A stretch of 64,000 nt of DNA. Source: Candidatus Thorarchaeota archaeon. Its GTDB lineage: Archaea; Asgardarchaeota; Thorarchaeia; Thorarchaeales; Thorarchaeaceae. Below the pieces are notes generated by a model. The model was not told the DNA's origin and did not search any database. It saw only the letters and a program-made list of their open reading frames with translations. Positions within the stretch are counted from its first letter, which is position 1, and the number at the start of each line of letters is the position of its first letter. Position numbers and translations under genes: made by a program. Positions 28,307-38,566 of the stretch are shown here, in pieces. Location: positions 32,001 through 96,000 of the forward strand of contig JAFGAR010000146.1 in assembly GCA_016933575.1 (NCBI GenBank). The letters are read 5' to 3'.

Positions 28307-28990
28307 TTGGATAATATAGAAACACCAGTTGTCATTATCAATCTGAAGACGTACTCACAAGCTACCGGCGAGAAGGCAGTCCTGATGGCTCAGGCTTGCG
28401 AGAGGGTCTCAAATGAATATGATGTTCCAATAGTTGTAGCACCACAAATGCCAGATCTATATCGTGTTGCTAAGGCTGTTGAGATACCTGTGTTTTCGCA
28501 GCATATGGACCCTGGGGAACCTGGACGTTTTACTGGGCATGTTTTGGGTGAAGCACTTGTCGAATCTGGATGTGCTGGAACCCTTCTCAATCACTCTGAG
28601 CATAGAATGCAATTAGCAGATATTGAAGAAGCGATTCAAATTGCACATAAACTCCATCTCTATTCTGTAGTGTGCACAAACAACATTCAGGTAAGTGTTG
28701 CTGCAGCATGCATGAGACCTTGGTCAGTTGCTGTGGAACCTCCAGAATTGATAGGGTCTGGAATATCTGTTTCTCAAGCTCAGCCTGAGATCATCTCTGG
28801 TACAGTGAAAAAGATACGGGCAGTTAACAAGGACGTAGTGATACTCTGTGGTGCAGGTATCAGCAATGGTGAAGACGTTACTTCAGCTATAAAACTCGGT
28901 GCACAGGGAGTCCTGCTTGCCTCTGCAGTTGCCAAATCACCAAAGCCAGAATCTGTTCTTGCTGATCTCGTAGGTCCCTTGAGCAAATAG
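28307..28990 (+). CDS. tpiA: Triosephosphate isomerase (archaeal type)
   Basis: INLKTY, LNHSE, AVEPPELIG, GVLLAS. Confidence 0.96.
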   Translation: MDNIETPVVIINLKTYSQATGEKAVLMAQACERVSNEYDVPIVVAPQMPDLYRVAKAVEIPVFSQHMDPGEPGRFTGHVLGEALVESGCAGTLLNHSEHRMQLADIEEAIQIAHKLHLYSVVCTNNIQVSVAAACMRPWSVAVEPPELIGSGISVSQAQPEIISGTVKKIRAVNKDVVILCGAGISNGEDVTSAIKLGAQGVLLASAVAKSPKPESVLADLVGPLSK

Positions 28991-29044: not shown

Positions 29045-29926
29045 GTGAAAGTTTCTCTAGAATGCGCGCATTGTCTCTTGGAACGGGCGGGGAATCAGGT
29101 ACGATTAGCCACTGATGATCCAGATCTTCAGATGCGAGTCATTCAAGCCATGACAAAGTTTCTGGGAGAGAACTTTGATAGTGATGCGGTACCCAGTCAT
29201 ATTGGAACTGATAGAGACCTCCTTGTGCAGCGTATGACTGGAAGGGACCCGTATAAGGATTTGAAGCATCAATCCAATGTAATGGCTCTTAGCATCCTTC
29301 CTGAATTGTTGCAGCTAGTTGATGAGAAAGATGGTTCTGAGTCAAGATTCAGGACCGCGACTCTAATTGCAGCAGCAGCCAATTCAATTGAGTTTGATGT
29401 ATCCGGTCGAGAATTCAGTCTTAGCGAGTTAAAGACAATTATTGAGAATGTTGAAGCTGATTTGGCCTTGGACCAAGTAGACGAATTCCGAGAACTTTGT
29501 AAAACCGCTCAGAACGTTCTCTATCTCATGGACAATGCTGGAGAGGTTGTCTTGGATATGATCTTGATCCGCGAGATCAAGAGGTTGGGTCCAAAGGTAA
29601 CCGCAGTGGTGAAGGGTGGACCAATCCTCAATGATGCAACTATGATTGATGCAGATGAAGTCGGCCTTGGAGAGTATGCAGACGATGTTGTGGATACTGG
29701 AGCTCCAGCCATTGGCGTGAATCTAGAGCGAAACTCACAGGAGTTCAAAGAACTTCTCTCATCATCAGAATTGATAGTAGCAAAAGGAATGGGCAATTTT
29801 GAGTCAATGACAGAGTTTGAACCAAGTTCTCCAACGGTTCATATAATGCGAACAAAGTGTAATCCTGTTGCCAGACATGTGGGTGTTCCGAAGAACAAGA
29901 ATGTGGTGTTGATCAGAAGTCCATAG
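29045..29926 (+). CDS. DUF89/ARMT1-like damage-control phosphatase
   Basis: CAHC, DPYK, DNAGE, ILNDAT, AKGMGNFES, RTKC. Confidence 0.9.
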   Translation: MKVSLECAHCLLERAGNQVRLATDDPDLQMRVIQAMTKFLGENFDSDAVPSHIGTDRDLLVQRMTGRDPYKDLKHQSNVMALSILPELLQLVDEKDGSESRFRTATLIAAAANSIEFDVSGREFSLSELKTIIENVEADLALDQVDEFRELCKTAQNVLYLMDNAGEVVLDMILIREIKRLGPKVTAVVKGGPILNDATMIDADEVGLGEYADDVVDTGAPAIGVNLERNSQEFKELLSSSELIVAKGMGNFESMTEFEPSSPTVHIMRTKCNPVARHVGVPKNKNVVLIRSP

Positions 29927-29934
29927 TAAACATG

Positions 29935-30765
29935 TTATGCCATATCTTCCGTGTATGGTCTCAAGCCCAGAGTGAGTGGTGAAGATGCCATGAACTCGAT
30001 CTTCAACTCTGGAAAATCAAGACTGATACTATCTCTGAGTCGTTTCATCCCAGGGTCTTCAGTCACGAAGGCACCTAGTTCTATAGTATTAATTCCCTCC
30101 TCATTCGCAAGTAATCTGATCTCAGGAGCAAGTTCGCCTGTGACGATTGTCTGGATGTCTTGTTTCTTTGCATTGATTATATCTGGCATGTCTACTACGC
30201 TACCAGCTATTAGGAGAAATTCTTCCACTTCGTCATCAAGGTCTCCGCTGAAAAAGACCGTATTGAGTCCCATCTTGGAGGCTATATAATTTGCAAAGCC
30301 AGAATGATTCTTCACACCTGGAGGATTGCAGATTCTACCGAATGGTTCTTGTTGACCAAAGTCACTCTCAACAAAGAAGTCTCCTGATTTCTCTATTCCA
30401 AGTGTGTCGACAAGAGCATCATTCATCCCATCTCTCGCGCAGAGCCAACCACTTCCAATAGTGTAGGTAGAGATGTAATTCTTAGTCAGAAGACGTACAC
30501 GAACAAGATCAAGTCCTGACAGTCTATCAACGACGAACGGAAATAGAGGGCGATATGTGATAATGAGGTTTGATTTGTCCTGGGAGGCTTTTGTTACTGC
30601 TCTCGCAGAGAGATAGGAAACCACTAGAATCTTGTTGACCGTCGTGTTTGCCTGTTCTGTAACAGTCTGAGGTCCCACTTCCACCCGATTCTCCATTCCG
30701 CGAAGCACTTTGTCGGAAGGCGAGAGTTCTTGAAGCCGTTTTAGAATTTGAAGTAAACTTGTCAT
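29935..30765 (-). CDS. NIF3/YbgI-family protein lacking metal ligands
   Basis: NIF3 layout is kept (LIITYRPLF, GMNDAL, VTGE, LGAFVTE) but the His ligands are replaced. Confidence 0.75.
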   Translation of the reverse strand: MTSLLQILKRLQELSPSDKVLRGMENRVEVGPQTVTEQANTTVNKILVVSYLSARAVTKASQDKSNLIITYRPLFPFVVDRLSGLDLVRVRLLTKNYISTYTIGSGWLCARDGMNDALVDTLGIEKSGDFFVESDFGQQEPFGRICNPPGVKNHSGFANYIASKMGLNTVFFSGDLDDEVEEFLLIAGSVVDMPDIINAKKQDIQTIVTGELAPEIRLLANEEGINTIELGAFVTEDPGMKRLRDSISLDFPELKIEFMASSPLTLGLRPYTEDMA

Positions 30766-30856: not shown

Positions 30857-31225
30857 TTAATCGGATGCATCCTCATTTTCTTCAAAGTCTTCATCCAGAT
30901 CTTCATCATCATAAGAGTAGAGCTCTTCTAGTTCGTCATCGATTTCTTCGACTTCTTCCAGAACTTCTCCGATTACTGGTTCCTCATCAATGACTTCAAG
31001 TTCTGGCTCCTTGACTTTCTTTTCCTTCTCAGGTTTTGCTTTCTTCTCAATCTTACCCTTGGTATCTGCTTTCTTCTCTGGTACTACAGCCCTCTTCTTC
31101 ATCTTCCAATATTCTGTCTTTGCGGATCTCTTTCTACCCATGATTTTGTAGTCAATCTGCTCTGGATTCTGAAGATTTCTAAGTCTAGTCCGTTCACGTT
31201 TGAGGGTCTTATCTCTGTTCACCAT
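30857..31225 (-). CDS. Hypothetical bipartite basic/acidic protein
   Basis: Lys/Arg-rich N-terminal half, Asp/Glu-rich C-terminal half. Confidence 0.65.
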   Translation of the reverse strand: MVNRDKTLKRERTRLRNLQNPEQIDYKIMGRKRSAKTEYWKMKKRAVVPEKKADTKGKIEKKAKPEKEKKVKEPELEVIDEEPVIGEVLEEVEEIDDELEELYSYDDEDLDEDFEENEDASD

Positions 31226-31365
31226 CGACTATCACCGTCGCGTTCCTGCGGAGTCCTCTGATTTGTTTTATAACTGTGTCGAAAGAGAGAGAAGACAACC
31301 CTTTTGTCCTTGGTCTACTCTCAATAATTGTCTTAAGCTTCGACTTCAGTATAGGAGAAGGAATA

Positions 31366-31887
31366 ATGCCAAAGAAAGGTGTTGATGATACAATAAGCAT
31401 TCGAGTGCGTCTTGAGAAATCGCTCATAGATCGACTTGACAAGGCGGTTGGCGAGGGAAATCGTCAACGATTCATCAGAGATGCAGTTGAATGGCGTTTG
31501 GACGAGGAACTTCCACCAATCTATTATGAACTATCTGAGGAATTGGCACAACTCAACGTACGTGTTGCACATCTAGAAAAATCTCAATCAACTAGTGTCT
31601 TTCTTGGCGAACTCAACACTACTACTAATGATCAGATCTGTGCTGATGACCTAGATCGTAAATTACTAGCCTTCTTTATTCGAAATGAGGGTGGAACCAC
31701 TCCTGAACTGGCAGAGCATCTCCTCGGGGACTCTGGCAAGCGACGAACAATTCTTGATAGGATCGATAGATTGAACACACGGGCTCAGGAACTAATCGGT
31801 TCTCCCGTCCTCGAATACAAGAAGGGGTTTGTTAAGGACAAACGCGGTGCTTGGTGGCTTGTCGACCCAACATCTATTATGACATAG
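31366..31887 (+). CDS. RHH + coiled-coil + winged-helix protein (putative regulator)
   Basis: ISIRVRLEKSLIDRLD...NRQRFIRDAV, then LDRKLL...TTPELAE; AGGAG upstream. Confidence 0.7.
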   Translation: MPKKGVDDTISIRVRLEKSLIDRLDKAVGEGNRQRFIRDAVEWRLDEELPPIYYELSEELAQLNVRVAHLEKSQSTSVFLGELNTTTNDQICADDLDRKLLAFFIRNEGGTTPELAEHLLGDSGKRRTILDRIDRLNTRAQELIGSPVLEYKKGFVKDKRGAWWLVDPTSIMT

Positions 31888-31940: not shown

Positions 31941-32018
31941 GGGGCCGTAGTCTAGCCTGGATAAGGCACCAGCCTCCGGAGTTGGTAATCCCCGGTTCGA
32001 ATCCGGGCGGTCCCGCCA
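31941..32018 (+). tRNA. tRNA-Arg(CCG)
   Basis: Cloverleaf: GGGGCCG/CGGTCCC acceptor stem, CCAGC-CTCCGGA-GTTGG anticodon arm, GGTTCGAATCC T-arm, encoded CCA; TTTAAG upstream. Confidence 0.96.
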
Positions 32019-32391: not shown

Positions 32392-32469
32392 GGGGCCGTA
32401 GTCTAGCCTGGATAAGGCACCAGCCTGCGGAGTTGGTAATCCCCGGTTCGAATCCGGGCGGTCCCGCCA
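32392..32469 (+). tRNA. tRNA-Arg(GCG)
   Basis: Identical to 31941-32018 except the first anticodon base; encoded CCA. Confidence 0.96.
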
Positions 32470-32591: not shown

Positions 32592-33719
32592 ATGATATAC
32601 ACTCCCCAACGATTAGAACGTGTGTATCGTTCCATGAATCGCGAAGAGATTGATGTCCTCATAGTCACACGAAGGCAAGATGTTCAGTATCTCACTGGAT
32701 TTCAGAGTGGTGGTCATAATCTTCCAATTGGTTGCATAATCTCAGAGGGAAATCAACCTCATTTGGTAGTTTCCAACGCGCTCGAAACAACCATAGCTAA
32801 TGAAGCGATTATGGCAAAAGTACACTCTTTTAGTACTGATGCATCTGAAGACTGGTTCCGTGCCCATGGTAACGCCTTCTGGGAAGAAGTTGTTAAGATA
32901 CTCACAGAAAATGGTCAGATAAAAGGAATGATTGGTCTTCAACATGATTGGCTATCAGTCCGTGAATTTGAGAAGATCAAATCTAGTCTACCAAATGCTG
33001 GCTTTCGGGATTTCTCTTTACCACTCTGGAGAATCCGGCATATCAAGGACGCTGCGGAAATCGAGGCTATTCGTCAAGCAGTCAATGTTGCAGAGATTGG
33101 TATCAGAACCGCTCTGGAAATTGTCGCATCTGGAAAATCTGAGGATGAGGCATCTCTTGAGATTGAGGCTGCAATGCGAAGTGCAGGCGGGCAACAACGA
33201 GGAATTCGTGCTGCTGTCCTATCCGGAACTCATGCACGTTATCCCTCTGCACAACCTGGACCTGAGCGCATTAAGAATGAGGACTTTGTCGTTCTCGATA
33301 TCACAGTGAGCCATTCAGGCTATTTTGCTGAGATCACACGTACCATACACCTTGGTTCTCCAACAGAAAAACAAAGAAAACTCTATGAGTATGTTGTCAA
33401 TACGATCAACACCGCCCAGCGAGTGATGCAACCTGAAACAAGTATCAGCGATGTGGCGGCTCAGATAATCAAGAAAGTAGGAAAAGCATTTCCTCCAGAG
33501 ACCCTCATACAACCAATCGGGAGTTCTATCGGTCTTGATCTTCGAGAACCCCCCTACATATCTCCAGATAGCCAATTCTCATTACGGGCGGGTATGGTAT
33601 TCACAATCCATCCAACAGGATACATTCCTGATGTAGGTTCTGCGAAGGTAGCAGATGTTCTATTGGTCACACAAGATGGTGTTGAGAATCTGGGTTCTCT
33701 TGCTCGTGAAACTATGTAA
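32592..33719 (+). CDS. M24 (Xaa-Pro peptidase/creatinase fold) protein, catalytically degenerate
   Basis: YLTGF N-domain, RHIKDAAEI, EITRT, GMVFTIHP; most metal ligands substituted. Confidence 0.85.
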   Translation: MIYTPQRLERVYRSMNREEIDVLIVTRRQDVQYLTGFQSGGHNLPIGCIISEGNQPHLVVSNALETTIANEAIMAKVHSFSTDASEDWFRAHGNAFWEEVVKILTENGQIKGMIGLQHDWLSVREFEKIKSSLPNAGFRDFSLPLWRIRHIKDAAEIEAIRQAVNVAEIGIRTALEIVASGKSEDEASLEIEAAMRSAGGQQRGIRAAVLSGTHARYPSAQPGPERIKNEDFVVLDITVSHSGYFAEITRTIHLGSPTEKQRKLYEYVVNTINTAQRVMQPETSISDVAAQIIKKVGKAFPPETLIQPIGSSIGLDLREPPYISPDSQFSLRAGMVFTIHPTGYIPDVGSAKVADVLLVTQDGVENLGSLARETM

Positions 33720-34253
33720 TCAGGTAGATTGTTGCCAACGCTTTAATTTCTGAAATACATGTGCGATGGCCTCTACTCTGGTATTATGTTTATCAACTTC
33801 TTCACGAGAGAGTTCTCGAATTTGAGCAGCGGGAGCTCCAGAATTGAGACTACGTGGAGGGATGACAACATTTGATGGTACAATACTTCCTGGAGCGAGC
33901 ATGACGCCTTCACCAAGAGTCGCTCCGTCAAAGATCACACAACCATCTCCTATATTCGCGCTATCACCAATATAGACGCCATGAATTACTGCAGCTGTAC
34001 CAATGATAGTATTGTTGCCGATAATAGTCGGATTATCTTCACTATGAGCATGAATTACTGCGCTATCTTGCACACAGGTATTTTCGCCAATTCTTACAGA
34101 CGCAAAGTCTCCACGTATCACAGCACCTGGCCAGATACTTGCTCGAGGACCTATATCGACATCACCAACAATTGTTGCCTGTGGACTAACGAAGGCTTTT
34201 GAGTCAATCTTGGGGCTCTTATCTCCAAAGGGTAATATTGGCACATCTTGCAC
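33720..34253 (-). CDS. Gamma-carbonic anhydrase-like hexapeptide-repeat protein
   Basis: VIRGD, VQDSAVIH, left-handed beta-helix repeats, GAPA. Confidence 0.85.
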   Translation of the reverse strand: MQDVPILPFGDKSPKIDSKAFVSPQATIVGDVDIGPRASIWPGAVIRGDFASVRIGENTCVQDSAVIHAHSEDNPTIIGNNTIIGTAAVIHGVYIGDSANIGDGCVIFDGATLGEGVMLAPGSIVPSNVVIPPRSLNSGAPAAQIRELSREEVDKHNTRVEAIAHVFQKLKRWQQST

Positions 34254-35781: not shown

Positions 35782-35914
35782 ACAAATTTCCCTCTATCTC
35801 ATTAAGAACTGTGAAGATATATCATGTATTCGGGAAGTCTTCTTCCTTCCATTTTCACGGTGCCAAAGTTTGATAAGCCCAAGAACTTTCCGGTCATGGA
35901 ATCTGGTGGTAATT

Positions 35915-38566
35915 GTGCCTGTCCTTCACTGTCCAAAATGCGGGTCTCGCCTTGACTTCAAGAAAGAAGTGGGGGGTTGGTACGTCACTTGTTCATCCTG
36001 TAATATTCAAGTGATTGTGGATGGTAGTAGAAAGGACCTCTTTGATGCATATGAGGCATATTCAGAGGAAATCAAACATCAAGGTCCGCTACAGGATAGT
36101 CTAAAAGGCAAAACACGAAAGAGGAAATATCTTGGTAGTGGGGCGGAAACATCAAGAAAGAAGGGTAAAAGAAGACTCGATCCATCCTCTCGTGTTCAAT
36201 CCGAAGAAGCAATCAGTAAACTTGTAGCAGATGGTGGAGGTGATGTTGAGTCATTTCCTGATGCATTGAAGTCCCTTGTCGCCTCTGGTCGAGATTACCT
36301 AGTAAAGTATCAATATATGGCATCTACTGAGGCGGAATATGGTACTTCTGTTGACGATCTTAGCGTACCTACGCGACTGAAAGAATATTTGAAATCAAGA
36401 GGGATTTCGATACTCTACAAATTCCAGGAAGAGTCCTATAATGCAATCAACGATGGAGATGATGTAGTCATTGTTGCACCTACTGCTCAGGGTAAGACCG
36501 AAGGGTTCGTTTTGCCCATAATCCGACAACTACTTCTGACTGTCCAAGATGCTTTTACAAATCCCGGTGTGCGAGCTCTGCTCATCTATCCTACAAAGGC
36601 TCTTGCACGAGACCAATACGATAAGATCAAACAACTTGGCAAGGCATCAGGTCTTACAGTTGCGCTCTTTGATGGAGATATCCCACAGACTGAAAGAAGT
36701 AAGCTCTATTCATCTCCTCCAGACATTCTTCTGACTAATCCTGATGTGCTTCATTATCACTTGGGTTGGATTGATTCTCGTTTGGTACCTCTTCTCCGCA
36801 CTGTGAAGTTTGTTGTCTTAGATGAGATTCATCTCTACACTGGTTCCATGGGAGCGAATGTCTATTATATTCTGAAGCGCCTAGAACTCGAATCCGGTAG
36901 ATTTCAGAAAATTGGAGCTTCAGCTACTGTAGCAAATCCAAAGGAATTTACAGACATTCTCTTTGATATAGAAGTAAAACTAATCGAATCGAAGGATGCA
37001 AAACGTGGTCCGATTCATTTCTTGATGTACTATCCGGGAATGCGTAGCAAATACAGCATGATTGTTGACCTGGTCACATCAATACAGAGAGGCGATTTCA
37101 AGACCCTTGTCTTTGGAAATACCCACTCTGAGGCTGAAGTAATCAATATGTTACTTGGTGACTCTGGTGTGAAATCAATGGTCCACAGGGCTGGACTCTC
37201 AAAGAAGTATCGAAGCGATGTTGAGGATAAGTTCAGAGCTGGAGATCTACCCGTCATCGTATCGACTCCCACACTCGAACTTGGAATTGACATTGGAGAC
37301 CTGAATAGTGTAGTCAGTATGATTGTCTCAATTACAAGACTGACCCAGCGCATTGGAAGAGCTGGCCGAAAGGGGCAGGAGAGTGTAGCAATTCTAGCTC
37401 TCCGTGAAAATGATCCAATCTCCTCTTTCTACAGATTTGAACCTGAGAAATATTTTACTGATATTGATGCTGCCTATACTGAGCCAGAGAATGAGGTCGT
37501 AGGCTACTACCAATTGATCGCTGCAGCCATGAGTGGTAGATTAAAGACAACTGATTTTCCAAGACATAATCGAGTCTTAGAGAAATTAAAGGCTGATAAT
37601 ATACTGGATGTGTATGATAATGGAGACATCCGTATTACTGATTTTGAGAGAGCCCAAAAAGCTTGGAGAGGGTATAGTATCCGGGGGATTGGGGATACAG
37701 TTCAGATTAGATTGGATAAACGAGGCCTAGGTGAGCGTTCCATGCCTATGGCAGCACAAGAGCTTCATCCAGGAGCCATCTATCTCCATGGAGGCAAGAA
37801 CTATCTCTCTGTGGACTTCAAATACATGCCTGGTCTTGGTAGAGCTACTGTAGTACCATATACTGACCGAAGTTTCCATACGAAACCACTCTATTACACA
37901 ATGCCAAAGATACTCGAGATAGTTGAACACAGTAAGATCCTGGGCCTCAATGCGGTCTACTGTACCCTAGAAATGACACAGACTGTCTATGGTTATGTTA
38001 AAAGAGAGACCCGCAGTGGTAGAATTCTTGGTAGAACTGATTTACCAACACCATTGATCTATTCCTATCAGACAAGGGGGTTTGCATTCACTGCTCCAGA
38101 ACCCGTGAAATCCGTAAACGACTATACCACAGGAAAATATGCGGCACTTGGAGGTGGCAAGATGGGCCCCGTCGAACTCTATGGTGGGGCTTTCCATGCA
38201 GTTGAGCATGTGCTTATCGAATCGAGTAACATGTTCACTGGTGGTGGTACTCGAGAGATTGGTGGTGTATCGATGGGTGATTCTGGCATCATCTTTGTGT
38301 ATGATGGAAGCCCGGGCGGGAATGGAGCCTCTCGACTGCTCTTTGGAAAACTAGATGAGGCATTCAGAAGAACAAAGACGATACTCAAGAACTGCAACTG
38401 CAACACAATTGATGGGTGCCCACTCTGTACGTACTCTTACTATTGTGGAAATAATAACAGCCCCCTCTTCAAGATCGGTGCACTTGAGAGTGTCGAGAAG
38501 ATACTCTCATTGGATGAGACCACAGTGGATACAGAAGGGTACGCAGGATTTGAGCCGTTAGTATAA
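35915..38566 (+). CDS. DEAH-box SF2 helicase with DUF1998 (Hrq1/MrfA/SftH-like)
   Basis: APTAQGKT, DEIH, SAT, QRIGRAGR, HAVEH, CNC...GCPLC...C; GTG start after GGTGGT. Confidence 0.9.
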   Translation: MPVLHCPKCGSRLDFKKEVGGWYVTCSSCNIQVIVDGSRKDLFDAYEAYSEEIKHQGPLQDSLKGKTRKRKYLGSGAETSRKKGKRRLDPSSRVQSEEAISKLVADGGGDVESFPDALKSLVASGRDYLVKYQYMASTEAEYGTSVDDLSVPTRLKEYLKSRGISILYKFQEESYNAINDGDDVVIVAPTAQGKTEGFVLPIIRQLLLTVQDAFTNPGVRALLIYPTKALARDQYDKIKQLGKASGLTVALFDGDIPQTERSKLYSSPPDILLTNPDVLHYHLGWIDSRLVPLLRTVKFVVLDEIHLYTGSMGANVYYILKRLELESGRFQKIGASATVANPKEFTDILFDIEVKLIESKDAKRGPIHFLMYYPGMRSKYSMIVDLVTSIQRGDFKTLVFGNTHSEAEVINMLLGDSGVKSMVHRAGLSKKYRSDVEDKFRAGDLPVIVSTPTLELGIDIGDLNSVVSMIVSITRLTQRIGRAGRKGQESVAILALRENDPISSFYRFEPEKYFTDIDAAYTEPENEVVGYYQLIAAAMSGRLKTTDFPRHNRVLEKLKADNILDVYDNGDIRITDFERAQKAWRGYSIRGIGDTVQIRLDKRGLGERSMPMAAQELHPGAIYLHGGKNYLSVDFKYMPGLGRATVVPYTDRSFHTKPLYYTMPKILEIVEHSKILGLNAVYCTLEMTQTVYGYVKRETRSGRILGRTDLPTPLIYSYQTRGFAFTAPEPVKSVNDYTTGKYAALGGGKMGPVELYGGAFHAVEHVLIESSNMFTGGGTREIGGVSMGDSGIIFVYDGSPGGNGASRLLFGKLDEAFRRTKTILKNCNCNTIDGCPLCTYSYYCGNNNSPLFKIGALESVEKILSLDETTVDTEGYAGFEPLV

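Follow-up and report, generated by a model that had tools for sequence, protein, structure and literature searches.

A putative pseudo-peptidase built on a prolidase scaffold in an Asgard-specific protein clade

The window analyzed here, a stretch of 64,000 nucleotides from a contig of Candidatus Thorarchaeota archaeon (JAFGAR010000146.1, positions 32,001 to 96,000 of the forward strand), carries at 32592-33719 (+) a gene of the M24 peptidase family whose product, designated P0001, has 375 residues. Our analyses revealed that P0001 is a member of an Asgard-specific clade descended from PepQ-type Xaa-Pro dipeptidases, the M24B prolidases. It is probably a pseudo-peptidase on the PepQ scaffold, which would no longer perform two-metal hydrolysis and would act by binding away from the old catalytic centre, either under or together with the regulator encoded by the adjacent gene. 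An intact and conserved fold whose catalytic residues have been lost under relaxed constraint is what characterizes a pseudoenzyme, and P0001, judged from its residues and those of its relatives, displays both features.

An altered metal centre on a prolidase scaffold

The open reading frame (ORF) runs uninterrupted from an ATG at 32592 to a TAA at 33717-33719, which bears out a preliminary description of this gene as full length and intact. The product consists of an N-lobe at residues 7-151 (32610..33044, +), which matches Creatinase_N (PF01321, E 4e-17) and is not of the Spt16_Nlob type, and a pita-bread C-lobe at residues 158-361 (33063..33674, +), which matches Peptidase_M24 (PF00557, E 1e-38) and is also recognized in the AlphaFold2 (AF2) model, by Foldseek and by VIA-align. 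The best NCBIfam match is NF040821 (dipep_PepQ_Arch); its score of 145 bits falls below the equivalog cut-off of 630. The closest solved relative by sequence is the P. furiosus prolidase 1PV9, which was aligned residue by residue (E 9e-38); the match improves to E 3e-53 to 6e-87 when profiles are used, and the scores span 133-295 bits overall. The ORF and its translation, the Pfam matches, the 1PV9 alignment and the clade membership described below are the basis on which we annotate the gene as prolidase-derived with a degenerate metal centre.

The five metal ligands of 1PV9, D209, D220, H284, E313 and E327, correspond to D236, E247, S311, H340 and A354 of P0001, and the codon positions of the altered residues were verified on the DNA. 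Four of the five ligands are altered, one of them conservatively (Asp to Glu), and both non-ligand catalytic histidines, H192 and H291, are replaced. The proton-shuttle His192 aligns with S219 (33246..33248, +), so that PH192 has become PS219. In the segment from D236 through E247 (33297..33332, +), the ligand Asp209 is retained as D236, while the ligand Asp220 has been exchanged for E247 (SD220ITRT to AE247ITRT). In S311-S-I-G-L-D-L-R318-E319 (33522..33548, +), the ligand His284 is replaced by S311 and the second catalytic His291 by R318 (GH284GVGLEIH291E to GS311SIGLDLR318E). The ligand Glu313 is replaced by H340 (33609..33611, +; TIE313P to TIH340P), and the ligand Glu327 by A354 (33651..33653, +; RIE327D to KVA354D). 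The PS, AEITRT, GSSIGLDLRE, TIHP and KVAD motifs listed in the preliminary description, in which the first Asp alone is retained, were all confirmed against 1PV9. The altered site is peculiar to the P0001 gene, because the M24 paralogues of the same genome (L001, L003 and three MetAP2-type genes) retain complete D-D-H-E-E sets.

In its two-domain architecture, its length and the segment lengths of its C-lobe, P0001 resembles the PepQ prolidases (1PV9 and P. horikoshii 1WY2; MEROPS M24B), from which it differs by the four changed ligands and the loss of both catalytic histidines. When the AF2 model (pLDDT 88, pTM 0.86) was searched with Foldseek, the prolidases 1WY2 and 1PV9 came first (E 4e-31, 24-25% identity), and Spt16-N appeared from rank 45 (E 2e-20, 13-15% identity). 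In the VIA-align superpositions, the creatinases scored numerically highest (Z 38, rmsd 3.3-3.5 over 361 residues), followed by the prolidases and the ectoine hydrolase DoeA (Z 35-37), Spt16-N (Z 31-33), and DddP and AMPP (Z 29-31). As far as the predicted model goes, all of the compared structures have one and the same two-lobed fold, and Spt16-N is not the nearest of them.

An Asgard clade with a drifting catalytic centre

More than 200 homologues of P0001 were found at E <= 1e-10 in Thor and Sif metagenome bins, and those listed are 49-76% identical. A profile search of 1.8 billion representatives returned the next-best relatives at 200-300 bits from Freyr/Jord, Sigyn, Odin, Baldr and unclassified Promethearchaeota, and these likewise lack the ligand set. 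A second profile search added members from Hodarchaeota and Jordarchaeales and revealed a cliff in the scores. All proteins at 373 bits or above are degenerate, and Asgard wherever the source is named, whereas the 21 sequences checked at 279 bits or below (Bathyarchaeia, Thermoproteota and bacteria) all display the canonical H-D-D-H-H-E-E pattern, as do three further canonical controls. Exactly one copy at E <= 1e-100 is present in 105 of 400 Asgard species genomes, and 102 of these 105 single-copy orthologues are free of internal stops. The members are spread over about ten Asgard families of the Thor, Sif, Jord/Freyr, Odin, Baldr and Hod lineages; none was found in the 135 genomes of the largest family.

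Phylogenetic analyses place these proteins together. In a FastTree analysis of 150 representatives, all degenerate Asgard sequences form one clade (support 97). Under LG+C20+F+G4 with posterior mean site frequencies (PMSF), IQ-TREE recovered 22 Asgard sequences as monophyletic with an SH-aLRT support of 99, nested among PepQ types and with a set of canonical archaeal prolidases as the sister group, in trees that left out creatinase, AMPP, DoeA, EBP1 and non-yeast Spt16. The literature searched yielded no earlier description of an Asgard dead-prolidase family. The clade would be a previously undescribed, archaeal, M24B-derived M24 pseudoenzyme, M24 pseudoenzymes as such being already known.

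The former catalytic site has decayed differently in each lineage. Listed in the order 219/236/247/311/318/340/354, the site reads x-D-E-S/N-x-H-A in Thor, Y-N-D-H-Y-E-E in Jord/Freyr, Y-V-R-S-E-K-E in Jordarchaeales, Y-N-Q-C-C-Y-G in Hod, Y-S-N-N-I-E-G in Odin, R-N-K-H-F-E-G in Baldr and L-D-D-H-Y-K-E in the member P0133. Position 219, the site of the catalytic His, is usually occupied by Phe in Thor and by Tyr in the remaining Asgard lineages, and among the Thor orthologues position 318 varies between R, Y and H, and position 311 between S and N. Among the sampled members, every single ligand is retained in some lineage but never the whole set, and the ligand tables contain no full five-ligand dinuclear site. 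Across the clade, the commonest residue reaches 24-60% at the seven former site columns, against a mean column identity of 48%. Because the former site is more variable than the rest of the protein and took a different course of decay in every lineage, the clade probably lost its peptidase function at its base. The catalytic constraint was probably released at or near this base, with the ligands drifting independently thereafter.

The scaffold has been retained. From residue 115 to 372, the segment lengths of the clade equal those of the canonical prolidases, and nearly all clade-wide invariant residues are structural ones common to both; within Thor and Sif, an alignment of 64 sequences contains 43 invariant columns. 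A gain-of-conservation analysis against the canonical prolidases revealed two motifs specific to the clade. One is P-x-x-G-F-x-D-x-S-x-x-x-W at residues 134-146 (32991..33029, +), in the last part of the N-lobe and the linker helix. The other is A-E-x-G-x-R-T at residues 167-173 (33090..33110, +), in the first helix of the C-lobe; its R172 does not vary within the clade, but canonical prolidases do not conserve it. Both motifs were placed from sequence and predicted secondary structure. The median isoelectric points of the clade (5.7), the canonical prolidases (6.2) and Spt16-N (5.5) are uninformative.

These observations suggest a course of events in which the clade abandoned Xaa-Pro hydrolysis at its base or close to it, after which the ligands of the metal centre drifted independently in each lineage. 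P0001 would then be unable to perform two-metal hydrolysis. Because the clade-specific conservation sits at residues 134-146 and 167-173, outside the old centre, we infer a binding or regulatory role for P0001; the retained function would depend on the scaffold together with this patch of linker and first helix, and not on the old catalytic centre. P0001 is probably under the control of, or a partner of, the adjacent regulator, a protein combining ribbon-helix-helix (RHH) and winged-helix domains.

The resemblance to Spt16-N

The preliminary description proposed P0001 as a possible pseudoenzyme resembling Spt16-N, the N-terminal domain of Spt16 in the eukaryotic histone chaperone FACT. The part of this proposal that concerns an inactivated and conserved pseudoenzyme agrees with our findings and extends to the whole clade, while a specific relationship to Spt16-N does not. 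The two are alike in general terms. Spt16-N (3BIQ and 3BIT from yeast, 3CB5 from S. pombe, 5E5B from human) is also M24B-derived and two-lobed, has also lost its former catalytic centre, and like P0001 has residues that are small or basic where the ligands and His used to be. As a pseudo-peptidase kept for a non-catalytic role, Spt16-N provides a functional analogy to P0001 (PMC4741192). The two proteins are 13-17% identical. The N-lobe of P0001 is of the Creatinase_N type, and P0001 stands alone at 375 residues instead of forming the head of a protein of about 1000 residues.

The Spt16 motifs quoted in the preliminary description proved exact against the PDB sequences (human 346-418, yeast 366-424). 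Yeast Spt16 reads IGSLIGLEFRD ... NISFG ... LQLADTV, and human Spt16 GFGMGIEFRE ... SINLG ... LFIGDTV. P0001 agrees with yeast Spt16 at three former catalytic positions, having Ser at the His ligand, Arg at the second His and Ala at the last Glu. Human Spt16 has Phe, Arg and Gly at these positions; Phe, Asn and Gly occur in the human protein where yeast has Ser, Ser and Ala, so that the match is limited to one species. Moreover, S311, H340 and A354 of Thor arose inside the clade, because Jord/Freyr still has H311, E340 and E354. They therefore cannot be a joint inheritance with Spt16, except if Spt16 itself had its origin inside Thor.

Similarity comparisons were made with two Saccharomycetaceae Spt16 genes from metagenome contigs (L016:1912-5019, 1035 residues, and L018), both of which match PF14826 and PF00557, and with 25 matched canonical prolidases as the canonical set for hhalign. 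In hhalign, the Asgard clade gave Spt16-N a score of 57.5 (E 3.6e-7), and the canonical prolidases gave it 75.9 (E 7e-10); in hmmsearch, Spt16-N scored 40/44 bits with the clade and 39/51 bits with the canonical set. A search of the PDB with the canonical-prolidase profile did not include Spt16 among its best 60 matches, and hhalign and hmmsearch were used for the comparison instead. When 404 collected sequences were searched with Spt16-N in phmmer, the best 25 matches were all canonical prolidases. The median was 8.6 bits for the clade and 16.3 for the canonical sequences, and the Hod member P0301, at 6.6 bits, was among the lowest. FACT-Spt16_Nlob (PF14826), which gives 167-169 bits on the yeast controls, matched 0 of 25 clade members at E <= 10, a search in which the HMMER filters drop most matches above about 0.1, and it had no match in the source genome, which is 85.5% complete. 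A profile search for longer proteins found neither fused or longer forms nor Spt16 among 8000 candidates, which is weak evidence.

The indel and character comparisons point in the same direction. Of the six larger Spt16 insertions, in the segments 7-33, 58-77, 115-140, 176-199, 199-212 and 341-355, the clade has none, its segments being of canonical length. Spt16 retains 10 of the 28 canonical residues that the clade has lost and has the clade state in 4 of them, and it shares 3 of the 17 clade-specific residues. The structural superposition proposed as a check in the preliminary description likewise ranks Spt16-N below the prolidases and creatinases. The proposed M24 phylogeny gave a mixed outcome, as the clade nests among canonical prolidases and the maximum-likelihood (ML) trees place Spt16 outside it, on a branch of about 2.6 changes per column, while the approximately unbiased (AU) test does not reject Spt16 joined to the clade (delta lnL 2.0, p 0.47) or to Thor alone (delta lnL 8.8, p 0.33). 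Both AU tests used the same two close yeast sequences on a very long branch, and their outcomes are to be read as a lack of power and not as support for kinship; in the trees, Spt16 joins another long branch, own_L001, probably through long-branch attraction.

That P0001 is an Spt16-N-like module for binding histones or peptides, and its clade the sister or ancestor from which eukaryotes inherited a dead prolidase, is accordingly a reading to which we assign a very low probability. It can draw on the Ser, Arg and Ala held in common with yeast, on the detection of human SPT16 by the clade profile (E 1e-21, 80 bits), on the undecided AU test and on the presence of the clade in Hodarchaeota, which are close relatives of eukaryotes. 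Canonical prolidases, however, match Spt16-N equally well or better, and all of the similarity, indel and character comparisons that were run oppose an Asgard source of Spt16-N. The fuller proposal, in which the Asgard clade including Hodarchaeota is the sister or source of Spt16-N and the head of FACT was inherited already inactivated, would seem scarcely credible; under it, the module perhaps already acted alongside DNA-binding proteins, of which the adjacent RHH and winged-helix factor would be an example. The residue parallels between P0001 and Spt16-N are best explained by convergent loss of ligands that were no longer needed, not by common descent. Convergent decay, which the preliminary description had named as its alternative, thus fits the comparisons best.

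Neighbouring genes and alternative explanations

The gene upstream of the P0001 gene encodes a putative transcription regulator of 170 residues with RHH and winged-helix domains (31375..31887, +). Its ORF was called from a GTG at 31276, and the homologues favour the Met at 31375; in an alignment of six orthologous neighbours, RHH_1 and HTH_24 were each found in 5 of the 6. According to same-contig coordinates, an orthologue of the regulator directly adjoins the M24 gene in five Asgard families, co-directionally in the Thor order and divergently in three other families. A regulator typically stays next to its target or partner in this way, even where the orientation changes. A complex prediction for P0001 and this neighbour gave a score of 0.00, an absence of an answer that counts neither way on binding. 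In the window, two tRNA-Arg genes detected by ARAGORN, with anticodons CCG (31941-32018, +) and GCG (32392-32469, +), lie between the regulator and M24 genes.

Further upstream, Pfam identified three recurrent neighbours: TIM (28307-28990, +), an ARMT1-like/DUF89 damage-control phosphatase (29045-29926, +) and NIF3/DUF34 (29935-30765, -). TIM, DUF89 and NIF3 occur within a few kb of the orthologue in Thor, Sif, the P0136 lineage, Jord and Odin, the last without TIM. In Jord the order is M24-DUF89-TIM, with gaps of 12 bp and then 6-33 bp. In Baldr, FBPase_3 lies beside the M24 gene and NIF3 nearby, and in Hod a HAD sugar-phosphatase gene follows 16 bp downstream. The P0001 locus differs in this from the canonical PepQ locus of Bathyarchaeia that served as the one control, which contains proteasome and pyrroline-5-carboxylate (P5C) reductase genes, without TIM, DUF89 or NIF3. 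Taken together, the neighbourhood is suggestive without pointing to a particular function. Between NIF3 and the regulator, a 122-residue ORF without a Pfam match (30857-31225, -) is basic and rich in Lys in its middle part and has a C-terminal tail of Asp/Glu that is strongly acidic; small ORFs without Pfam matches occupy the same place in loci L019 (94 residues) and L022 (149 residues), and are linked to it by position alone.

Convergent with the M24 gene lies a gene for a left-handed beta-helix protein of the hexapeptide, gamma-CA/DCTN5-like type (33720..34253, -; Pfam), which is kept at this position in the Thor, Sif and P0136 lineages (loci L014, L019 and L022). Besides Hexapep, its product has sub-threshold Pfam matches to dynactin subunit 5 (E 5e-9) and to the left-handed beta-helix of eIF2B-epsilon. 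The gene at 35870-38566 (+) encodes an MrfA/Lhr-like DEAD-box helicase that combines an MZB zinc-binding domain with a zinc ribbon at its N terminus; it is syntenic in Thor and Sif loci, where it is followed by an archaeosine TGT/PUA gene. Genes of eukaryotic-signature type lie within a few kb of orthologues in loci L008, L013, L014, L015 and L020. They comprise profilin and Yip1 in Hod and actin in Odin, and near other orthologues Roadblock/LC7 in the P0136 lineage and, at the P0290 locus, an Arf/Ras-like GTPase. The Hod and Jord loci both contain a Hist_deacetyl gene.

Several other M24 genes were encountered. The three MetAP2-type M24A paralogues of the source genome (G000:C64:94734-96260, L006/L007, and L005) all keep their ligands; two of them, of 307 and 317 residues, stand in tandem on the minus strand. 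A separate altered M24B group has the pattern x-V/S/N-E-H-H-E-S, which retains both His but has other residues in place of the first Asp and the last Glu. This group includes L002 (G000:C215, a 437-residue paralogue of the source genome), P0151, P0156, P0225, P0231 and P0260, and it forms its own clade in the trees. In the Odin locus, a second Peptidase_M24 gene of 394 residues without a Creatinase_N match (L013:7923-9107, -) lies at a distance of 800 bp from the degenerate orthologue. Three M24 orthologues (G316:C12:11144-12268, G098:C87:207-1307 and G107:C40:32531-33628) are each interrupted by a single in-frame stop, TAG in one case and TGA in two, and one in-frame stop occurs in each of four matches to the RHH and winged-helix protein (TAA in G113, G114 and G116; TAG in G002). 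Errors in sequencing, overhang of the matches or recoding could account for these stops.

Several points weigh against a pseudo-peptidase that acts by binding. The remodelled site is well kept in Thor and Sif, where 118 full-length orthologues have D236 in 118 (100%), E247 in 110 (93%), S or N at 311 in 117, S312 in 117 (99%), H340 in 110 (93%) and A354 in 113, as well as D355 in 99%. A new activity in this sub-lineage is conceivable, as its Asp, Glu and His could in principle hold one metal. Some Jord/Freyr members retain four of the five ligands, and in some Thor genera (g16 and g6) the regulator is present with no M24 match at the threshold used. The TIM, DUF89 and NIF3 synteny may reflect no more than a gene order passed down, with the functions of these genes unconnected. 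In addition, the predicted inactivity of P0001 is read from its residues, and the proposed binding role from the location of conservation.

A rival reading is a remodelled enzyme, with one metal (held by D236, E247 and H340) or none, acting on a small molecule other than a peptide. We consider such an enzyme unlikely, and most plausible within Thor and Sif, where the altered residues are strongly conserved. Precedents on the same fold are creatinase, DoeA and the dimethylsulfoniopropionate (DMSP) lyase DddP (1CHM, 1KP0 and 7YTO; 6TWK; 4B28). Creatinase is metal-free, an M24 protein that works without a dinuclear centre, and the creatinases stand at the top of the VIA-align ranking, tied with the prolidases within about one Z unit. 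The substrate could be linked to the sugar-phosphate genes nearby (TIM, DUF89, FBP aldolase/phosphatase), and the tight spacing to DUF89 and TIM in Jord and to HAD in Hod, like FBPase_3 in Baldr, would suit such a link. In sequence, however, P0001 is far less similar to creatinases (76-130 bits) than to prolidases (184-295 bits). No conserved replacement catalytic residues were found across the clade, whose old pocket holds no conserved polar constellation and differs in charge and size among lineages. The seven site positions are among the most variable columns, the proton-shuttle position is Phe, Tyr or Ser, and what is invariant is nearly all structural. A decaying gene without any retained function would be in keeping with catalytic residues that are lost and drift between lineages. 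This reading is nevertheless effectively refuted by conservation, and we give it almost no weight: the ORFs are full length and single-copy in 105 genomes, only three having one internal stop, the homologues are numerous and similar, the invariant columns many, the segment lengths conserved, and new clade-specific motifs have appeared. A pseudo-peptidase that acts by binding on the PepQ scaffold remains the explanation that we favour.

The best-known dead M24 proteins that have been turned into binding modules are eukaryotic, namely Spt16-N, EBP1 and Arx1. EBP1/PA2G4 and Arx1 are M24A proteins, derived from MetAP2 and reused as binding modules; they come from the single-domain MetAP2 branch, unlike P0001, which is of the M24B type with a Creatinase_N lobe, and MetAP-type chains score only 33-81 bits. 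The comparison with Spt16 also calls for caution, as matching substitutions at former catalytic positions can converge and are alone no proof of homology to a eukaryotic signature protein.

To conclude, a subset of Asgard archaea appears to have made and kept its own pseudo-prolidase, which is single-copy and of sufficient age to be common to Thor, Jord, Odin, Baldr and Hod. Database entries label the members of the clade 'Xaa-Pro peptidase' or 'M24 family metallopeptidase', and such labelling probably overstates the peptide-degrading capacity of Asgard carriers in metabolic reconstructions. The pairing with the regulator and the TIM, DUF89 and NIF3 neighbourhood provide handles for finding the function of this protein.

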